Assembly: GCA_943789065.1 (NCBI GenBank)
Contig: CALSSQ010000001.1
Span: forward strand, 32,650-96,649
Reading direction: 5' to 3'
Length of the DNA stretch: 64,000 nucleotides
DNA from: an uncultured Candidatus Actinomarinales bacterium
GTDB taxonomy: Bacteria; Actinomycetota; Acidimicrobiia; Actinomarinales; Actinomarinaceae
In this document: positions 54,643-63,792 of the stretch, one piece after another
Layout: the number at the start of each line of letters is the position of its first letter
How positions within the stretch are numbered: the stretch's first letter is position 1
Program-made: the position numbers and the translations under genes
The notes under the pieces: model-generated
Databases searched by the model: none
What the model was told of the DNA's origin: nothing
What the model saw: the letters and a program-made list of their open reading frames with translations, nothing else

Positions 54643-56112
54643 ATGAATCTCGTACCTGATAACAGAATTACTGCATTAAAAGATATTGAGCCAGATATTG
54701 ATAAAGAATTCGTTCTTTATTGGGTAATAAATTTTAAAAGAACATCGTATAACTTTGCCCTTCAACGTGCTGTCGAATGGGCAAATAAACTTAATAAACC
54801 ACTACTGATTTTCGATCCATTAATTCTTGATTATCCAATGTCCAGCGTAAGGTTCCATAAATTCTTTCTTGAGGGTATGAAAGATATTGATGAAGATATT
54901 TCAAAAACTAAAGCTTTTTACTACCCATACGCAGAGGAAACACCAAATGCAAGTGAAGATCTCCTTACGATACTATTTTCAAAAGCTGCCGTAGTAGTCA
55001 CTGATGATTACCCAACCTATTTTGTTCCTCAAATGACTGCAAAAGCAAAAGGAGTTATTAACACACGCTATGAAATTATCGATGCCAATGGACTAATTCC
55101 AATTCGTATTGCAGAAAAAGAGTATGTAAGGGCTCATGACTTTCGCAGATACATGCATAAAAATCTATTAGATTTTCTTGTGGATGTTCCTGAAGAAAAT
55201 CCTCTTAACAAATTAGAGGTGGAATTTGATGATAAGTTAATCAAAGATATAGATAGTAAGTGGAATAAAATAAATTTCGAAACATTCAATCAAGAAGACT
55301 TTTTAAACAATTTAAATATCGATAAAACTGTCAAAGAGAGCCCCATTATTGGAGGCTATAAAAAAGCAAAAGAGCGTTTAGATTACTTTTTAGAAAATGG
55401 GTACAACGATTACGCAACATTAAGAAGTCATCCATCTGAAGATGCAAGTAGTCAACTATCACCATATTTACACGCTGGCCATATTTCGCCATATGAAATT
55501 TTTGTCAAAGTTAATGAACTCGAATCCTGGTCTATGGAAAATGTTAACCCTGCTTTTGTTGGGAGAAGGCAAGGTTGGTGGGGCGGATCAGAGAATTTAG
55601 AAAGTTTCTTTGACGAGCTTATTACGTGGAGAGAACTTGGATATCATACTTGCGTTACGCGAGCCAATTATGACCAGTATTCCTCACTTCCAGAATGGGC
55701 AATTAAAACTCTAGAGGAACATGCGAATGATCCCAGAGAGTATGTTTATTCACTACAACAATTAGTCAATTCTGAAACACATGATGAAATATGGAATGCA
55801 GCTCAAACACAATTAAGAGAAGAGGGTATTATTCATAATTATTTAAGAATGCTCTGGGCAAAAAAAATATTAGAGTGGGCACCAAATCCTAAATTAGCTT
55901 TGTCGTATATGATTGATTTAAATGATAGATTTGCTTTAGATGGTAGAGATCCAAATTCATACTCAGGGGTATTCTGGTCACTAGGCAGGTACGATAGAGC
56001 GTGGGGGCCAGAAAGAAAAATTTATGGAAAAATTCGTTATATGACCTCTGAAAATACTGCTAAGAAATTTAAACTTGGCGGTTATCTTGAAAAATACGGC
56101 TCCAAAATATAG
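54643..56112 (+). CDS. phrB: Deoxyribodipyrimidine photolyase, class II type
   Basis: SQLSPYLHAG, HNYLRMLWAKK, DGRDPNSYSG, DRAWGPERKIYGKIRYM. Confidence 0.9.
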   Translation: MNLVPDNRITALKDIEPDIDKEFVLYWVINFKRTSYNFALQRAVEWANKLNKPLLIFDPLILDYPMSSVRFHKFFLEGMKDIDEDISKTKAFYYPYAEETPNASEDLLTILFSKAAVVVTDDYPTYFVPQMTAKAKGVINTRYEIIDANGLIPIRIAEKEYVRAHDFRRYMHKNLLDFLVDVPEENPLNKLEVEFDDKLIKDIDSKWNKINFETFNQEDFLNNLNIDKTVKESPIIGGYKKAKERLDYFLENGYNDYATLRSHPSEDASSQLSPYLHAGHISPYEIFVKVNELESWSMENVNPAFVGRRQGWWGGSENLESFFDELITWRELGYHTCVTRANYDQYSSLPEWAIKTLEEHANDPREYVYSLQQLVNSETHDEIWNAAQTQLREEGIIHNYLRMLWAKKILEWAPNPKLALSYMIDLNDRFALDGRDPNSYSGVFWSLGRYDRAWGPERKIYGKIRYMTSENTAKKFKLGGYLEKYGSKI

Positions 56113-56143: not shown

Positions 56144-56173
56144 ATGTGAATTATTTCACAAGCGTGCTATATT
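56144..56173 (+). promoter_or_regulatory. Rex-like operator plus extended -10 of the rhodopsin promoter
   Basis: ATGTGAA-TTAT-TTCACAA versus Rex consensus TTGTGAA-N4-TTCACAA, then GCG-TGC-TATATT. Confidence 0.6.
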
Positions 56174-56218
56174 GTGATTATAAGATATTTAAAAGCTATA
56201 TAAAGGAGACGCTTAAAA

Positions 56219-56884
56219 ATGGCCGAACTTACATACAGACTTTTTATGGTGGCAACTGCAGGTATGCTTGCAGGAACAGTATATTTACTGATGTCATCAA
56301 GAGAAGTTGATCCGAAATTCAGAAGAGGTGTATATATCTCAGCATTAGTGACTGGAATTGCATGGTATCACTACCAAAAAATGACAGTATCTTTTGCATC
56401 AGGAGACTTTGACACACCTTTGCGATATGTTGATTGGGTACTAACCGTTCCATTAATGTTCGTAGAAGTTCTTGCAGTAACATCTAAAGGTGCAGAGTAT
56501 GCCCAAAAAGTCAGAACTATGGGTGCAGCTGCACTTGTAATGATTGGTGGAGGATATTACGGAGAAGTATCAGCAGAAGCTGGAGATGCACAATACTGGA
56601 CTGGTTTTGTAGTATCAATGGTTGCTTATGCATTTCTAATGAGAGCACTACAAGCTGAAGGTACATCACTAACAGGTGATGCAGGTGAAGCATTCCAAAA
56701 AATCAAGAATCTTATTCTTATTGGTTGGATAATCTATCCATTAGGATTCTTAGCACCAGCAGTGAGTCCAGACTTAATGGACTTGAGAGAGCTTCTATAC
56801 ACAGTTGCTGACATTATTAACAAAGTCGGTCTTGGTGTATTAGTTCTTAATATGGCAAAAGTTCAATCAGGAGAAAAAGTCTAA
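56219..56884 (+). CDS. Marine actinobacterial-clade rhodopsin (proton pump, DTE motif)
   Basis: 221 aa with seven hydrophobic helices; RYVDWVLTVPLMFVE (D-T-E, Met at the tuning site), His in WYHY, Schiff-base Lys in DIINKVG; SD AAGGAG. Confidence 0.92.
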   Translation: MAELTYRLFMVATAGMLAGTVYLLMSSREVDPKFRRGVYISALVTGIAWYHYQKMTVSFASGDFDTPLRYVDWVLTVPLMFVEVLAVTSKGAEYAQKVRTMGAAALVMIGGGYYGEVSAEAGDAQYWTGFVVSMVAYAFLMRALQAEGTSLTGDAGEAFQKIKNLILIGWIIYPLGFLAPAVSPDLMDLRELLYTVADIINKVGLGVLVLNMAKVQSGEKV

Positions 56885-56906
56885 CTTTAACTCTTATTAA
56901 ATTTAT

Positions 56907-56938
56907 AGATAGGCGGCAATGTCCGCCTATCTTTTTTT
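56907..56938 (+). terminator. Intrinsic terminator after the rhodopsin gene
   Basis: AGATAGGCGG-CAATGT-CCGCCTATCT followed by a T run. Confidence 0.9.
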
Positions 56939-56950
56939 ATAGGTACAATT

Positions 56951-57475
56951 ATGGTCATGGATAAAATTATTTTTTTCAATACTCTCTTTGGGTTTTTTAC
57001 AGTCACTGCATGGATAATCTCGACAGGCATTCTATACCTATATATAACGAAAAAAACTTTTAATAAATTTATTACTGATCAGTTTTTATACTTCGCAACA
57101 AGTGTCGCTACTTTCTCTGCCGTTGGAAGTATTATTTACTCTGAAGTTGTTGGATTTATCCCATGTAAATTCTGCTGGTACCAACGTTATTTAATGTATC
57201 CAATAGCATTAATACTTATTCTTTCACTTTTTAAAAAGGATTTATACAAATTTGGCTTTATTAGTTTAGGTGGCCTCTTTGTTAGTTTATACCATATTTA
57301 TCTTCAAAATGGTGGTGGCGGTGGAGGGTCTTGCGCAGTAGACATTCCATGTAATCTCAAATATGTAGACATATTGGGTTTTATTAGTATTCCAGTAATG
57401 GGTGCTACTGGGTTTTTAACGATATTTATATCTTTATTGTATTATGACTATGCAAGGAGACAAAACATTGAATAA
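56951..57475 (+). CDS. dsbB: Disulfide bond formation protein DsbB/BdbC-like
   Basis: SEVVGFIPCKFCWYQRYLMYP, second Cys pair SCAVDIPC, ISIP. Confidence 0.85.
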   Translation: MVMDKIIFFNTLFGFFTVTAWIISTGILYLYITKKTFNKFITDQFLYFATSVATFSAVGSIIYSEVVGFIPCKFCWYQRYLMYPIALILILSLFKKDLYKFGFISLGGLFVSLYHIYLQNGGGGGGSCAVDIPCNLKYVDILGFISIPVMGATGFLTIFISLLYYDYARRQNIE

Positions 57476-58076
57476 AAATTTCTTAATAGCCGCAGGTGTT
57501 CTCTTAGTGATTGGCTTTGCTGTCGCAGTAGGGGTTACTTTAAGTACTGAACCTTTAACTGCTGGTCTTCCAGAAGGAGAGACCACTGTTACAGGAGATC
57601 CGCTACCAACTTATGCTGGTGAAAATGATGATAATGTTGCAATTGGGCTTTCAGCTCCAACGTTTTCTGGACCAAATGAAAATTCTGAAATAATCGCACT
57701 TGAAAAAAATGGTAATGCTAAAGCTATACTTTTTCTTGCTCATTGGTGTAATTACTGCCAAGCAGAAGTTCCATCTGTACAAGAATGGATTGATACTATA
57801 GGAGTTCCAGAGGGTATAGATATAATTGCAGTTGCCACTTCAATTGACAGATCAAGAGGTAATTATCCTCCTCACGATTGGCTAGAAAGAGAAGGCTGGA
57901 GTGAAACTCAGATATATGATCTAGATAAAAAAATTGGAGATGCATATGGTCTTACATCATTTCCATACTGGGTATTTCTTGATAATGAATTAAATGTTAA
58001 GGCACGAAGAACTGGTAGCTTACCACAAGACGCAGTTGGTCAACTTTTAGTTCAGCTAGCTTTAGAAAGCAGATAA
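57468..58076 (+). CDS. Membrane-anchored TlpA/ResA-like thioredoxin
   Basis: SD AAGGAG before TTG at 57468; N-terminal TM helix, AHWCNYC, cis-Pro SFP. Confidence 0.85.
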   Translation: MNKNFLIAAGVLLVIGFAVAVGVTLSTEPLTAGLPEGETTVTGDPLPTYAGENDDNVAIGLSAPTFSGPNENSEIIALEKNGNAKAILFLAHWCNYCQAEVPSVQEWIDTIGVPEGIDIIAVATSIDRSRGNYPPHDWLEREGWSETQIYDLDKKIGDAYGLTSFPYWVFLDNELNVKARRTGSLPQDAVGQLLVQLALESR

Positions 58077-58082
58077 AAGCAT

Positions 58083-58727
58083 CTAGCTTTTTTTCAGTAC
58101 AGATAAATATACAAAACCAAATATTCCCATTCTCTCGAGGGTGTAGCTATTGAATCCAGATTCTTTAAGAAATGATTCAGGAGCTTCTAGTTTGTCTAAA
58201 GACGTGTAAAGAAATCTATATTGTTTAAAGCTGAATGTTACGATACCAATCAAATGTAACGTTATGAATGTGCCCAACTTATGCAATCTTTTGGTGAACA
58301 TATTTAATGGCCTCGTCATATCAAGCAACACAAAGTTACCGTCATCTTTAAGAACTCTTTTTATTTCTTTAAAAGCTTTATCAGTATCTGAGACATTTCT
58401 CCAGACGAATGCACAGTAGATATTATCAAAAGATTTATCGTCGAAAGGTAAGGCCTCTGCAGAGCCTAAAATCTTATTAGAAAAATTATTTAAAGACAAC
58501 ATTCTTTCATCAGGATCTAATGCCGTCACTTCATAGCCAATAAGTTGTTTTTCAGCCGCACCAGTACCACTACCAAGGTCTAAAACAGTTGAACCAGTAA
58601 GTTGCTGAGACGCTTTTTCTCTCCAGGATTTATCAAACCCAAGTGTGAGTAGAGAGTTTATGCCATCATAGAATCTGTATATTTTTGAGAAATTAGCAGA
58701 CTTAGGCAATCTAGAGTATGTAGGCAA
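58083..58727 (-). CDS. menG: Demethylmenaquinone methyltransferase MenG/UbiE
   Basis: YDGINSLLTLGFDKSWR, LDLGSGTG, AEALPFDD, RNVSD..EIKRVLK; downstream of menA. Confidence 0.8.
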   Translation of the reverse strand: MPTYSRLPKSANFSKIYRFYDGINSLLTLGFDKSWREKASQQLTGSTVLDLGSGTGAAEKQLIGYEVTALDPDERMLSLNNFSNKILGSAEALPFDDKSFDNIYCAFVWRNVSDTDKAFKEIKRVLKDDGNFVLLDMTRPLNMFTKRLHKLGTFITLHLIGIVTFSFKQYRFLYTSLDKLEAPESFLKESGFNSYTLERMGIFGFVYLSVLKKS

Positions 58728-60228
58728 CAGAAAGTAAAATTCCTGTTAAAAAATGAATACCTATTGTTGATACATTGACAAGTAAGAGCTCATAAGGAAC
58801 TTTTTGTCTATCAGCATCAGGATTATTCCATTTAATCATCCACTCATCAGCCATTTTAAAGGCTTTCCAAACGAGTAAGACAGGTAGTAGTGCTGCGAAA
58901 GCGTACACTGTTCCGAATTCTGTAAACATACCCAAGAAACCAATAGCTGCAACAGATAAAAATGCTTCAACCATGAATTGCTTATAAAGAGAAAGTGGTT
59001 TTTCCATTCTCATCCAGCCATCATCTACTGCTGTTCTTACAACCCATGTGTTTTTACCTACTGCTGCATCTGAGGGTGCATCTTGAAATTGATTAATCCA
59101 GACAATAAGCATAACCAATATTCCAATTGGTACTGAGGCAATTAGTGCTTCCACCCAGTTCCATTGATTTATATCATTATTATGGATTGGAGCGGTCAGT
59201 ACATAGTGTGCACCCATGACCATAATCGGACCAAATCCAAGTGCGATAGCTATCTCTCCAAATCCTTTGTATCCAAGTCTTACAGGATCACCTGTATAGC
59301 CCAGAGCTAAGAACGTACCAATTATTCCAGTCCAGAGTATTGGAGTATTACCGAAAAAACTTCCACTTACTTGCTCATTTAGATATAAGCCAATTCCTAC
59401 GGTACCGATTATGCTCACTAGGGCTGTAATGAGTACTTGACCTGGTGTCATTAAGCCAACTTGAATAACTCTACTTCCACCATTAAAAGGACTAGCTACT
59501 TTGTTAATTTCATCAGCATTTGATGTATGGTCAAAAAAGTCGTTTGAGGCATTAGTTGCAATCTGAGCTAAAGATGCACCACCGAGAACCAACCAGAACA
59601 TTTTCCATGACCAGTTCTCGGCAATACCATTATCTTTGAGATCGCTCCATGCCACAGCTGCACCAATAAATATTGGAGCAAATGTAGCCGTTAGAAAGGG
59701 GGCTCTAACTGTTCTCAACCACAAACCAATTCTTTTTAACCCAAGTTTGAATGCCATTTTTAATGCGGAAGTTTTGTTTCCAGGAATAGTTTTCCATTGA
59801 AATTGTTCTTCCTCAAAAAAGTTCACATATTTAATAGTCGTAGGTTTTACCCTGTAGTATCCAACGACATCGTTATTAATTAAAAATTCATCTTCCATAT
59901 ATTCTTTGAATGCTTCAGTTGTATTTAATACAAGCTCATAAGCTTTCTTTTTTTCATCTTCATCTTTTATTTTGTAGCACTCACCATCAATTTGTAGACC
60001 TTCAATGCCTTCTTGACCTTTTGGCCAGATAACAACGTGTACTCTTGGATTTAAACGAATCTGTTCGGCTTTTCTTGTTGGATTAAATGTGAAGAATACT
60101 AAGTCTTCACCATCTCTACTGAAGAAGACAGATGCACCCGAGGAGTTACCGCCAACACTTGTTGCAATAAACATTCTGTCAGCAGAATCTAATACGTTTT
60201 CTATTTTGTTATCTAACAGTTCATTCAT
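58711..60228 (-). CDS. menA: Fusion: pyridoxamine-oxidase-like split barrel plus MenA (UbiA-family prenyltransferase); start moved to 60228
   Basis: N-terminal MFIATS, TRKAEQIRLNPRV, GLQIDG; C-terminal RAPFLTAT, NDFFD, GGSRVIQ, YKGFGE, NQFQD..SD..VGKNT. Confidence 0.8.
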   Translation of the reverse strand: MNELLDNKIENVLDSADRMFIATSVGGNSSGASVFFSRDGEDLVFFTFNPTRKAEQIRLNPRVHVVIWPKGQEGIEGLQIDGECYKIKDEDEKKKAYELVLNTTEAFKEYMEDEFLINNDVVGYYRVKPTTIKYVNFFEEEQFQWKTIPGNKTSALKMAFKLGLKRIGLWLRTVRAPFLTATFAPIFIGAAVAWSDLKDNGIAENWSWKMFWLVLGGASLAQIATNASNDFFDHTSNADEINKVASPFNGGSRVIQVGLMTPGQVLITALVSIIGTVGIGLYLNEQVSGSFFGNTPILWTGIIGTFLALGYTGDPVRLGYKGFGEIAIALGFGPIMVMGAHYVLTAPIHNNDINQWNWVEALIASVPIGILVMLIVWINQFQDAPSDAAVGKNTWVVRTAVDDGWMRMEKPLSLYKQFMVEAFLSVAAIGFLGMFTEFGTVYAFAALLPVLLVWKAFKMADEWMIKWNNPDADRQKVPYELLLVNVSTIGIHFLTGILLSVAYIL

Positions 60229-60235
60229 ACCTAAT

Positions 60236-60265
60236 AGGGTAATACGCTTGTGAAATAATGCACAA
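60236..60265 (-). promoter_or_regulatory. Rex-like operator plus -10 upstream of menA-menG
   Basis: Minus strand TTGTGCA-TTAT-TTCACAA-GCGTAT-TACCCT, 7 nt before the ATG at 60228. Confidence 0.6.
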
Positions 60266-60310: not shown

Positions 60311-62074
60311 ATGATGTTCAATGTCTTCAAAACACCAGAATTTAAAAAAGCCCTTACTTTCTATAAAGAGGGTGTTAAGGAAAATAAAAGAAGCTTTATT
60401 GTCTCAATGCTTTCAGCAGTTGTGTGGTGTTTTTTAATAGTTATTCAGCCATACATTATCAAGAGAATAATTGATGAAGGGATTGTTGGCCAAAATCAAC
60501 AAATATTAATCGTATTAATTTCGTTCATGTTAATTATTGGATACATTCGTGCAACAACAATTGGGGTACGTAGGTTCTATTCAATGCATGTCTCATATAA
60601 CGTTGAAGCTGGAATTAGAAATAGAATTTTTACACACATGCAAAAGTTAGCATTTAACTTTCACGATAAGGTTCCAACAGGAGAGTTGATGGCTAGAGCC
60701 TCAAGTGATGCATCTCAAGTCAGGCTCGCATTTGCTATTGCTCCATTAGCAACGGCTAACATTTTATTGCTGATCATATTAAGTATTACCCTTTTAAGCC
60801 TTAGTTTGCCGCTAGGGTCTATGGTTCTACTTTCTATACCAGCAGTGTTGTGGCTCGCATCTAGTTTTTCTGCAAAAGCAATGGGCGTTTCTTTGAGAGT
60901 AAAGGAAGCAGAAGCACAAATGACTACCGAGGTAGAGGAACAACTTGGCGGTATAAGAGTTGTGAAAGCATTTGGAAATGAAGAACTAGCATCTTCAAAA
61001 GTAGAATCAGCCATATCTAACATATACGACACATCCCTTGAATATCTGAACTTAAGAACAAGATTTGTCCCACTCTTTGAGCTAATACCAATGGTTATTA
61101 CATTGCTCGTATTATTACTCGGAGGTTATTTATCAATAAATGAATTGATTACTCTTGGAGATTTTATTGCATTTACACAATATGTCTTTTTGTTATTGTG
61201 GCCATTAAGAATTACAGCGTGGTTTTTATCTGAGATACCTTCAAGTGTTTCTGCAGGTATAAGAATCCTAGAGCTACTTGATGAAGAACCAACAATCGTT
61301 GATGATAATTCAGATACAGCTTTTCCAGTAGAGGGAATAGGAGCTATAAAATTTTCTAACGTTACTTTTAAGTACGGAAAAGAAAAAATATTTGATGACC
61401 TCTCTTTTGAAATTGAAGGTAAGAAGACAGTCGCCATTGTAGGTTCAACAGGATCTGGAAAATCAACTTTAGCATACTTACTACCAAGACTTTACGATAT
61501 TGAGTCCGGAGATATTGAGATTGATGGTGTCAATATAAACAACGTTAAACTCAGCGAATTAAGATCTGAGGTAAGCCTTGCATTTGAAGAAAGCTTTCTT
61601 TTTTCAAACTCAGCAAGAGAAAATATTTCTTTAGGTACTGATGAAGCATCAGATGAGCAAATACAAGATGCGGCAAATATTGCTAAAGCGCATGAATTCA
61701 TCTCTCAATTACCAGAATCATATGAGACTAAAGTTGGTGAGAGGGGTTATGGTCTCTCTGGAGGACAGAGACAGAGAATAGCTTTAGCTCGAGCTATCTT
61801 AAGACAGCCTAGGGTACTTATCCTAGACGATGCTTTATCGGCAGTGGATGCCTCAACTGAAGAAGAAATAAGAGCTGAACTTAAAAATGTCATGTCAGAT
61901 ATGACAACACTAATAATTACAAACCGTGTTCCAACAATTGAACTCTGTGATGACGTTGTCTTTATTGAGAATGGTAAGGTTAAGGCCCAAGGAAATCACA
62001 CAGATTTAATTGAAAATGTTGATAGCTACAAAGCGTTATTTCTTGAAAGCCAATCTTCTGGGCTTGATAAATGA
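60311..62074 (+). CDS. Heterodimeric ABC exporter subunit (degenerate nucleotide-binding site)
   Basis: TMD plus NBD: GSTGSGKS, LSGGQRQR, Walker B ILDD, H-switch replaced (ITNR). Confidence 0.88.
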   Translation: MMFNVFKTPEFKKALTFYKEGVKENKRSFIVSMLSAVVWCFLIVIQPYIIKRIIDEGIVGQNQQILIVLISFMLIIGYIRATTIGVRRFYSMHVSYNVEAGIRNRIFTHMQKLAFNFHDKVPTGELMARASSDASQVRLAFAIAPLATANILLLIILSITLLSLSLPLGSMVLLSIPAVLWLASSFSAKAMGVSLRVKEAEAQMTTEVEEQLGGIRVVKAFGNEELASSKVESAISNIYDTSLEYLNLRTRFVPLFELIPMVITLLVLLLGGYLSINELITLGDFIAFTQYVFLLLWPLRITAWFLSEIPSSVSAGIRILELLDEEPTIVDDNSDTAFPVEGIGAIKFSNVTFKYGKEKIFDDLSFEIEGKKTVAIVGSTGSGKSTLAYLLPRLYDIESGDIEIDGVNINNVKLSELRSEVSLAFEESFLFSNSARENISLGTDEASDEQIQDAANIAKAHEFISQLPESYETKVGERGYGLSGGQRQRIALARAILRQPRVLILDDALSAVDASTEEEIRAELKNVMSDMTTLIITNRVPTIELCDDVVFIENGKVKAQGNHTDLIENVDSYKALFLESQSSGLDK

Positions 62075-63792
62075 GCAACAATACTTTTTTAAGATCATTT
62101 AAGTTAGTACCGGAAATAAGTAGACCGTTCCTCTGGAGCTCTTTAATAGCCCTTACAGGTTCAGGACTAAGAATGATTGGCCCACAATTGATTTCAAGAG
62201 GTATTGATAATGGAGTCTTGAAATCTGACTATCAGTATCTACTACAGCAAAGCTTCTTTTACTTCATCACACTAGTTTTGCTTTATTTTGTAGCAAGTAA
62301 AGCACTCTTAGCTATTGGTCTCGTTGGAGAATCTTATGTAAGAAGTATTCGAGAAAAACTTTTTAAACACCTTGCTTCTTTAGATATTAATTATTTTGAA
62401 AAGAACAAGACAGGTGTTCTTGTTGCAAGAATGACTTCCGACATGCAAAGCCTCAATGAATTCGCTAGAGAGGGTGCAAGCAGCGTGATAACCGCCCTAT
62501 TAACAATTTTTGGGGCAACTGTTGCTGTATTTCTAGTAGATGTTCAATTAGCATTCCTATCTTTTCTTATCTTACCTCTACTTGGTGTAGCAACTAAAAT
62601 ATTTCGAAACCATGCTGACAAAACATACTGGGCAGTTAGAGAGTGGATTGGTCAGGTATTATCATCACTCCAAGAAGGAATATCCGGAGTCAGAATCATT
62701 CAAGCGTATGCTGATGAAAAATCACAATTTAATAAATTTAAAAATGTTAATGACGAACATTTAAAAGCTAATATGCAATCAGCTAAAAATATAGCTATAT
62801 ATTTTCCCTTTCTTGAAATCACACGGGTAACTTCCATAGCAGTAGTAATTTGGTTTGCTTCTTTAAGAATTAATGAAGGAACTTTGTCTGTAGGGGAATT
62901 GGTCGCTCTCTTGTTTTATTTAAACTATTTTTTCGATCCATTAATACAACTCTCATTTAATTATGATCTTTTAAGATCAGCAGGGTCTTCAATGAAGAAA
63001 GTATTTTCAATTCTAGACGAGGAACCTGTACTAAGCACTATGGGCTCTCAGTCCCCGAATATGGAATCAAACAATGTAATTGAATTTGAAAATGTATCGT
63101 TTTCTTATGGTAGGGAGACGGTATTGCACAATGTTGACTTTTCTATTATGAAGGGAGAGAAAATAGCAATTGTAGGGGAGACCGGTGCAGGTAAGAGCAC
63201 TATAGCTAAATTAATTCTTAGGTTTTACCTTTCTACAGAAGGAGACGTTAAATTTTACAATGAGTCAGCAAAAGATGTAAGCCAGAGATGGGCTAGAAAA
63301 AATATTGCTTATGTTCCCCAGGAAAGTTTTCTATTTAGGGGCACTATCCGAGATAATCTTATATATTCCAATCCAACAAAAATAAAGCTAGAGCAGGAGC
63401 TAAGTGAGATAGGTGTATTGGGTTGGTTTGAAAGATATGAAAATGGTCTGGACCAAGAAGTTGGAGAGAGAGGCTCAAATGTATCTGCTGGAGAAAGACA
63501 ATTTATTGCCCTACTTCGTGCAGTTCTTGCAAAAAGAGAAATCATTGTTTTTGATGAAGCAACAGCCAATCTCGATATAGAATCTGAAAACTCAATCCTT
63601 GATGCGACAGATACGCTGCTTGACTATCAAACTTCCATAGTTATTGCTCATAGGTTGGAGACAATCTTGAATGCAGAAAAAATACTAGTAATGAGAGATG
63701 GGAAGTTGGTTGGCTTCGATAATCATGAAAATCTTTTAAGCGACAATGAAATATATAAAGATTTATTCTCTGCTTGGAATCTAAGTAGCTAG
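62071..63792 (+). CDS. Heterodimeric ABC exporter subunit
   Basis: GETGAGKS, degenerate signature VSAGERQ, VFDEA, IAHR; ATGA-coupled to the upstream subunit. Confidence 0.88.

Follow-up and report, generated by a model that had tools for sequence, protein, structure and literature searches.

Candidate Rex operators ahead of a rhodopsin gene and a putative quinone prenyltransferase operon in an uncultured Actinomarinales bacterium

The regulation of rhodopsins in the dominant uncultured photoheterotrophs of the ocean is largely unknown, and for actinobacterial pumps we found no transcription factor-operator pair described in the literature that we searched. We analyzed a stretch of 64,000 nucleotides (referred to here as the window) from an uncultured Candidatus Actinomarinales bacterium, in which a type-1 rhodopsin gene and, on the opposite strand, a gene encoding a PNPOx-UbiA fusion protein are each preceded by a palindrome close to TTGTGAA-N4-TTCACAA. 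Both palindromes are very probably functional operators for the NADH/NAD+-sensing repressor Rex, a reading that an earlier note on this DNA had put forward and that is supported in silico by the presence of a rex gene, by the genome-wide excess of the site, by its targets nuoA and a whiB-like gene, and by its conservation. The result is a concrete candidate pair, in which one small repressor would act through an 18-bp site in response to a defined effector, NADH/NAD+; expression of rhodopsin, of complex I and of a quinone-tailoring operon should then follow redox poise in unison.

On the rhodopsin side, positions 56144-56173 of the plus strand read ATGTGAATTATTTCACAAGCGTGCTATATT, and positions 60236-60265, on the UbiA side, read TTGTGCATTATTTCACAAGCGTATTACCCT on the minus strand (both are direct readings). 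At the rhodopsin promoter the candidate Rex operator (ROP), ATGTGAATTATTTCACAA (56144..56161), lies 57 nt ahead of the ATG at 56219, and at the UbiA-fusion promoter its counterpart, TTGTGCATTATTTCACAA on the minus strand (60248..60265), lies 19 nt ahead of the ATG at 60228; each of the two 18-mers matches 13 of the 14 specified positions of the consensus. The two 30-nt units have 23 of 30 bases in common, including the non-consensus spacer TTAT and the subsequent GCGT, and a TAnnnT hexamer follows both palindromes at a distance of 6 nt. At the rhodopsin promoter this hexamer is part of a probable extended -10 element, TGcTATATT (56165..56173, plus strand, read directly, with TATATT at 56168-56173), and TATATT stands at the identical gap in the relatives G002, G004, G008 and G010 (G labels other than G000, the genome that holds the window, denote relatives in the order, C1 is its main contig, and L labels denote fetched loci). 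At the UbiA-fusion promoter the -10-like hexamer is TACCCT (60236..60241, minus strand), 7 nt ahead of the ATG. The two 18-mers, a shared 16-mer and the common gap to the hexamer, all pointed out in the earlier note, were recovered where it had placed them. A search of the window for TGTGAA-N4-TTCACA with at most one mismatch returns exactly these two sites (mean of 0.49 in the shuffled window, with 7 of 100 shuffles reaching two), and the 16-mer ATTATTTCACAAGCGT occurs exactly twice, once per strand, a count reached by 0 of 100 shuffles. At the level of the window the palindrome alone is statistically weak and mildly unusual; the genome-level statistic is strong.

The assembly comprises 1.06 Mb in three contigs, has a GC content of 34% and is 90% complete. 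Scanning C1 for TTGTGAA-N4-TTCACAA, we found 4 sites without a mismatch, 4 with one and 13 with two, compared with means of 0.05, 0.8 and 14.25, respectively, in 20 first-order Markov simulations of the contig. All four perfect sites fall in non-coding DNA, which makes up 5.5% of C1. Such a genome-wide scan had been proposed in the earlier note, and it places perfect sites right ahead of nuoA (C1:813164, 13 nt before the start) and of a WhiB-family gene (C1:179121, 14 nt from the gene, with a GDPD gene divergent). The third perfect site (C1:943865) precedes a 64-aa Cys-rich open reading frame (ORF), two HMA-domain genes and a P-type ATPase gene, and the fourth (C1:981257) precedes a 19-aa ORF, a lipoprotein-like 157-aa ORF that belongs to no family, and a gene resembling zinc alcohol dehydrogenases and quinone oxidoreductases. 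At this last locus (C1:981257-983179; L006) TATTGT stands 6 nt past the operator, and the site has no perfect counterpart among the perfect sites of five relatives. Two of the one-mismatch sites are the rhodopsin and UbiA-fusion sites; the other two (C1:151928 and C1:857556) lie inside coding regions and fit the expectation of 0.8, and we took them as chance. Sites with three mismatches (147 in total, 6 of them non-coding) are at chance level and were set aside. Five well-assembled relatives contain 18 perfect sites in total, versus none for a reversed-pattern control, and the 15 of these that we fetched lie at nuoA (4), the whiB-like gene (4), the small-ORF/HMA/ATPase operon (5) and rhodopsin (2). 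The predicted regulon would consist of six operators, serving nuoA-N, the whiB-like gene (plus the divergent GDPD gene), rhodopsin, the PNPOx-UbiA and UbiE-like genes, the small-ORF/HMA/P-type ATPase operon, and one locus without an assigned function (C1:981257).

The genome encodes the regulator that these sites call for. The product of rex (C1:814616-815260, 214 aa, 1.4 kb from nuoA) matches the NCBIfam equivalog NF003992 with 279.9 bits (cut-off 226), carries the Pfam domains Put_DNA-bind_N (PF06971) and CoA_binding (PF02629), which supply the winged helix and the NAD(H)-binding Rossmann fold of a Rex protein, can be aligned from one end to the other with Rex proteins of known structure (5zz5 with an E value of 1.8e-46, T-Rex 1xcb/3ikt with about 3e-40, and also 2vt3), and retains both the QVRrDLSYlG..GTRGVGY segment and the glycine motif GVGNLG. 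The order is represented by 65 genomes (one family, two genera), and rex was detected in 57 of them, usually beside nuoA, many of the assemblies being incomplete. The earlier note had named rex and crp as the genes to look for, and only the first was found: the cNMP_binding domain (PF00027) has no match in any of the 65 genomes, including G000 and the 12 that are at least 90% complete, and control genomes were positive. One candidate CRP-type protein was rejected; the sole weak match to HTH_Crp_2 (PF13545; 22.7 bits, below the cut-off) is a DtxR-type iron repressor with a Fe_dep_repr_C domain, adjoining an iron transporter.

The perfect operator at nuoA heads a 14-subunit complex I operon that contains nuoE, nuoF and nuoG, the NADH-oxidizing module. 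There are two complex I clusters, 26 kb apart (C1:798895-813150 with 14 subunits and C1:776697-786661 with 11; L101, L102 and L004), and for the 11-subunit cluster, which lacks nuoEFG and is followed by a Methyltransf_28 gene, we found no operator. An NADH sensor stationed only at the NADH-dependent enzyme fits the Rex reading. Two clusters of the same layout are described for Candidatus Actinomarina genomes in the available excerpts of two papers (PMC7771536; bioRxiv 10.1101/2021.02.01.429150). Among relatives, 64 genomes have a match, and the palindrome at nuoA is perfect in each of the 30 loci fetched; it lies 13-18 nt upstream of the start, and its two central spacer bases are variable.

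The promoter of the UbiA fusion is also conserved. Loci were fetched from 42 of the 59 genomes with a match, and one is cut by a contig end; in the 41 that can be assessed, the second genus included, TTGTG(C/T)A-N4-TTCACAA is found 18-20 nt before the start without exception. The T, the A and the final T of the hexamer at the 6-nt gap are likewise invariant in 41 of 41, and its three middle bases are variable. In both the nuoA and the UbiA-fusion sets the half-site columns are invariant (1.00), versus about 0.70 in the flanks, and the argument from conservation rests on this invariance of the half-sites inside divergent, partly unalignable flanks. The hexamer lies only 6-8 nt from the ATG and there is no Shine-Dalgarno sequence, so that the mRNA of the fusion is probably leaderless or nearly so.

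The rhodopsin gene, present in 53 of the 65 genomes, has a more varied promoter. Of 51 fetched loci, one has no upstream DNA; a canonical N4 site with at most two mismatches is present in 31 of the 50 assessable promoters. Five loci of the window's clade share the exact operator of the window, and G002, a relative with 88% identity, has a perfect one; in both the window's clade and G002 the operator is followed by TATATT after 6 nt, and the GCGT extension past the operator is limited to the window's clade. In a clade with 75-77% identity, TAnnnT stands 4 nt upstream of the operator, and G004, G008 and G010 (L167, L168 and L181) have two perfect operators, 23-24 nt apart, on either side of TATATT. 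This two-operator layout may be the ancestral rhodopsin promoter, which would later have been simplified differently in each clade.

From the sites, their excess and conservation, the rex gene and the missing CRP-type rival, we infer binding, repression, a response to NADH and the promoter elements, which together would work as follows. At the rhodopsin and UbiA-fusion promoters the operator would occupy the -35/spacer region and end 6 nt before TAnnnT, where bound Rex should keep RNA polymerase off. If it behaves as characterized Rex proteins do, the repressor would sit on DNA at low NADH/NAD+ and come off when NADH rises; complex I, the quinone step and rhodopsin would then be shut down together at a low ratio and released, as one membrane-energy module, at a higher one. 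Light harvesting would probably be tuned in this way by the redox state of the cell. If so, a streamlined genome would be reusing one regulator for a whole energy module, with only the NADH-type of its two complex I operons placed under Rex. A bolder version puts Rex in overall command of a minimal membrane-energy regulon and makes it, indirectly, a sensor of light. The rhodopsin would raise the proton-motive force, which would slow the oxidation of NADH by complex I, itself a proton pump, and drive up NADH/NAD+; Rex would leave its operators, and rhodopsin, the quinone step and complex I would be induced, giving a feed-forward loop that needs no photoreceptor. We consider this version speculative and rather doubtful.

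Several observations weigh against the Rex reading. The physiologic sign is counter-intuitive, with rhodopsin repressed at low NADH, when light energy might help most. There is no further non-coding site with two or fewer mismatches in G000, and none ahead of rex, which makes for a regulon unlike that of Streptomyces. The genomes compared are relatives rather than independent samples, and the counts given above overstate their independence. A scan with an E. coli-type promoter consensus called neither promoter and yielded 6 promoter-like sites in the region, as against 16.8 in shuffles. The RNA-library runs (4 of the 24 listed) consist of assembled contigs, from which transcript starts, strands and levels cannot be read; in one of them, X14, contigs lie on rhodopsin and the genes that follow (13 of 30 bins with depth), the photolyase and UbiA parts being bare, an observation from which we draw no inference. 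Conservation of the motif ahead of orthologous genes, a further check proposed in the earlier note, turned out favorable to Rex, as did the others that were run, but for rhodopsin it holds in the 31 promoters with a canonical site, and the canonical N4 operator is missing from the remaining 19 of 50. Sixteen of these loci, all of one clade with 73-74% identity (L150-L166), carry ATGTGAA-CGT-TTCACA(A/T), in which the spacer is one base short. In 8 of the 50 the only palindrome is this N3-spaced form, ATGTGAACGTTTCACAA, with at most one mismatch, and in another 8 the N3 element has two mismatches; the N3 palindrome lies 25-26 nt before the start, with a degenerate operator and TACATT upstream of it. 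The three other promoters (L017, L018 and L022) have neither an N4 nor an N3 palindrome, which brings to 11 the loci that fall short of both thresholds (N4 with two mismatches, N3 with one). Outside the family, none of 42 rhodopsin genes has a site (three or fewer mismatches, within 400 nt upstream); 30 of the genomes belong to the same class but to different families, and 12 to different classes (drawn from a 400-genome sample of the phylum), which indicates that the link is not a general one.

A different protein might bind the same sites. The core of both also fits TGTGA-N6-TCACA, the target of regulators of the CRP/GlxR/FNR family, which would place rhodopsin under cyclic AMP or another effector; moreover, were TATAAG, further downstream, the rhodopsin -10 element, the center of the site would fall at about -40, the position of a class II activator. 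This explanation has to find its protein in an order in which PF00027 is missing from 65 of 65 genomes and the one HTH_Crp_2 match is a DtxR-type repressor, and both the conservation of the T and A that flank the core (TTGTGAA/TTCACAA) and the presence of sites at nuoA and the whiB-like gene are in keeping with Rex; we judge it highly improbable. Equally poor are the prospects of the idea that the 30-nt unit is a duplicated or converted promoter (a -35-like TTGTGx, a spacer and a -10) without a dedicated regulator, or that it arose by chance. The 23 bases held in common, spacer TTAT and GCGT included, speak for this, as do the restriction of GCGT at the rhodopsin promoter to the window's clade and the occurrence of two palindromes in 7 of 100 shuffles of the window. 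Against this, nuoA, the whiB-like gene and the HMA/ATPase operon have these half-sites too, with spacers and flanks that are unrelated. The half-sites do not vary within the genus, and the genome has four perfect sites where 0.05 are expected; the genome-wide and comparative data bring duplication or chance close to refuted.

The explanation that comes nearest to ours accepts the sites as Rex operators and questions what Rex does there: it may be a weak constitutive brake, or an activator, at rhodopsin, or the real control may lie elsewhere (for example, in light or nutrients), so that redox would not govern rhodopsin levels. The mismatch in the rhodopsin operator of the window's clade speaks for this, as does the placement of the operator upstream, downstream or on both sides of the -10 element depending on the clade, with degeneration in 19 of 50 loci; contigs of X14 also lie on the rhodopsin gene, although contigs cannot measure expression level. 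Yet two perfect operators around the -10 element in three species are hard to explain without strong repression, and in all the positions observed the operator would overlap the predicted core promoter or the region of the start, as is usual for a repressor. We regard this account as unlikely, if less so than the two above, and repression of rhodopsin by Rex remains our preferred reading.

The rhodopsin gene itself (56219..56884, plus strand, 221 aa) matches Bac_rhodopsin (PF01036) over residues 8-214 with 119.2 bits (E value 2.5e-34). Its residues D, T and E, read by eye in RYVDWVLTVPLMFVE, are what we take to be the proton-pump motif. An intrinsic terminator follows (56907..56940, plus strand; a hairpin at 56907-56932 with a 10-bp stem containing 6 GC pairs, then a T run), and the gene looks like a single-gene unit with its own operator, -10 element and terminator. 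A class II-type photolyase gene lies directly upstream (54643-56112, plus strand; TIGR00591 at 350.6 bits, cut-off 550, and no Pfam match at E 0.001). Between rhodopsin and the UbiE-like gene lie genes for a DsbB/BdbC-like disulfide oxidoreductase and a thioredoxin-fold (AhpC-TSA/Redoxin) protein (56951-58076, plus strand); by family assignment these two and their neighbors form a cluster of membrane-redox genes. For blh (PF15461) there was no match, but the control genomes were likewise without one.

The gene behind the second operator (58711..60228, minus strand) encodes a 505-aa, MenA-like fusion of a PNPOx-like, FMN-binding domain (PNPOx_N, residues 6-96) with a UbiA-family prenyltransferase (UbiA, residues 184-460); its start is the ATG at 60228-60226, instead of the upstream TTG of the longest ORF. 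The match to the UbiA family (PF01040) reaches 86.8 bits (cut-off 34.2), and the best NCBIfam matches are MenA models, all of them sub-threshold (NF004751 with 103.4 versus 264, TIGR00751 with 77.1 versus 102.15). The adjacent gene (58083..58727, minus strand) encodes a UbiE/MenG-like methyltransferase (Ubie_methyltran, 86.1 bits versus a cut-off of 20.1; TIGR01934 at 116.8 bits, below its cut-off of 158.35), and the overlap of the two genes by 17 nt makes them one operon. The label menA-menG, given to this pair in the earlier note, is therefore right at the level of the families (UbiA and Ubie_methyltran) and goes too far beyond that, because the curated MenA and MenG cut-offs are missed and neither menB nor mqnA was found: for the naphthoate head-group pathway the best menB-model match has 81.5 bits (cut-off 342.7), and MqnA/MqnD (PF02621) gave no match, in a genome that is 90% complete. 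The genome has two UbiA-family genes, the fusion included. A PDB sequence search with the fusion returned no match at an E value of 0.01 or less. Its architecture recurs at 50-60% identity in proteins labeled Calditrichota, KSB1, Neomarinimicrobiota, Chlorobi and Gammaproteobacteria, and database names for it are generic at NCBI and 1,4-dihydroxy-2-naphthoate (DHNA) octaprenyltransferase at JGI. Most plausibly, the fusion is the quinone prenyltransferase of the organism.

A divergent pair of ATP-binding cassette (ABC) exporter genes (60311..63792, plus strand; ABC_membrane and ABC_tran in both) starts 46 nt from the UbiA-fusion operator, and its position makes it a possible further Rex target. 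An identity as CydDC is unsupported for this pair; neither the CydD nor the CydC model reaches its cut-off, and the proteins resemble MsbA. Elsewhere on C1, a gene of the geranylgeranyl-reductase family (C1:813230-814498; L004:3231-4499, minus strand) lies between nuoA and rex; it scores above the cut-off of TIGR02032 and far below that of the MenJ model, and the gene order rex, geranylgeranyl reductase, nuoA is retained in G002, G019, G044 and G049. The 64-aa ORF right behind the perfect site at C1:943865 (C1:943865-944093; L005:2366-2594) is rich in Cys and His and has 95-98% identity over five species, in which its neighbors have 45-79%; it matches no Pfam family, and an Atlas look-up returned unnamed clusters only.

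With respect to known systems, a full-text literature search combining rhodopsin, proteorhodopsin or actinorhodopsin with Rex or redox sensing returned no paper linking them, in line with the suggestion of the earlier note that control of this type is apparently undescribed for a rhodopsin gene; what seemed to match was a review of biosensors, an article by an author called Rex, and other unrelated usage. Proteorhodopsin-type genes are induced by light in some Flavobacteriia and are controlled by nutrient limitation and RpoS in a Vibrio. These systems share with ours the conditional expression of a light-driven proton pump; an NADH/NAD+-linked operator-repressor pair was not found for them in the literature searched. 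The light-inducible LitR/LdrP cluster of Thermus uses two regulators, a B12-dependent photoreceptor of the MerR type and an activator of the CRP family. It too has a palindromic operator before light-related genes, and a photolyase as neighbor, but its regulators are not implied here, where Rex takes their place. The CRP/GlxR operators of Actinobacteria (TGTGA-N6-TCACA) have a compatible core palindrome, but with no CRP/FNR-type protein in 65 genomes we reject membership in that group. An earlier genome paper, in the excerpt available, calls the rhodopsin 'likely cotranscribed' with the photolyase (PMC7771536), whereas we find the rhodopsin with a predicted operator, -10 element and terminator of its own. 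Rex is not mentioned in the available excerpts of that paper and of a second one on Actinomarinales genomes.

The closest counterpart is the Rex/ROP regulon of Streptomyces (S. coelicolor and S. avermitilis). According to the excerpts available for S. avermitilis (PMC5355995), Rex represses via ROP sites and NADH lowers its DNA binding; nuoA1-N1 and wblE are shown there to be Rex targets by electrophoretic mobility shift assay and chromatin immunoprecipitation, the H+-pyrophosphatase gene hppA is also a direct target, and the bound ROPs include the variants ATGTGAA (at cydA1) and TTGTGCA (at rex-hemAC1DB). The deviations of our two sites from the consensus are the same two, ATGTGAA at rhodopsin and TTGTGCA at the UbiA fusion, so that, as far as those excerpts go, the regulons share the 18-bp consensus, both variants, and nuoA-N and WhiB-family targets. 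The inclusion of hppA and atp in the S. avermitilis regulon (PMC5355995) also has a parallel here, in another pump related to proton-motive force. Unlike in Streptomyces, there are six operators here, none of them ahead of rex (among non-coding sites with two or fewer mismatches), the spacers are A/T-rich in DNA of 34% GC, and the predicted targets include rhodopsin, the PNPOx-UbiA/UbiE-like operon and the HMA/P-type ATPase operon. Operator, regulator and mode of action are of a kind already known, and the comparison points to a familiar regulon that one lineage has extended to a rhodopsin; the type-1 rhodopsin and the PNPOx-UbiA operon are its apparently new targets, restricted to that lineage.

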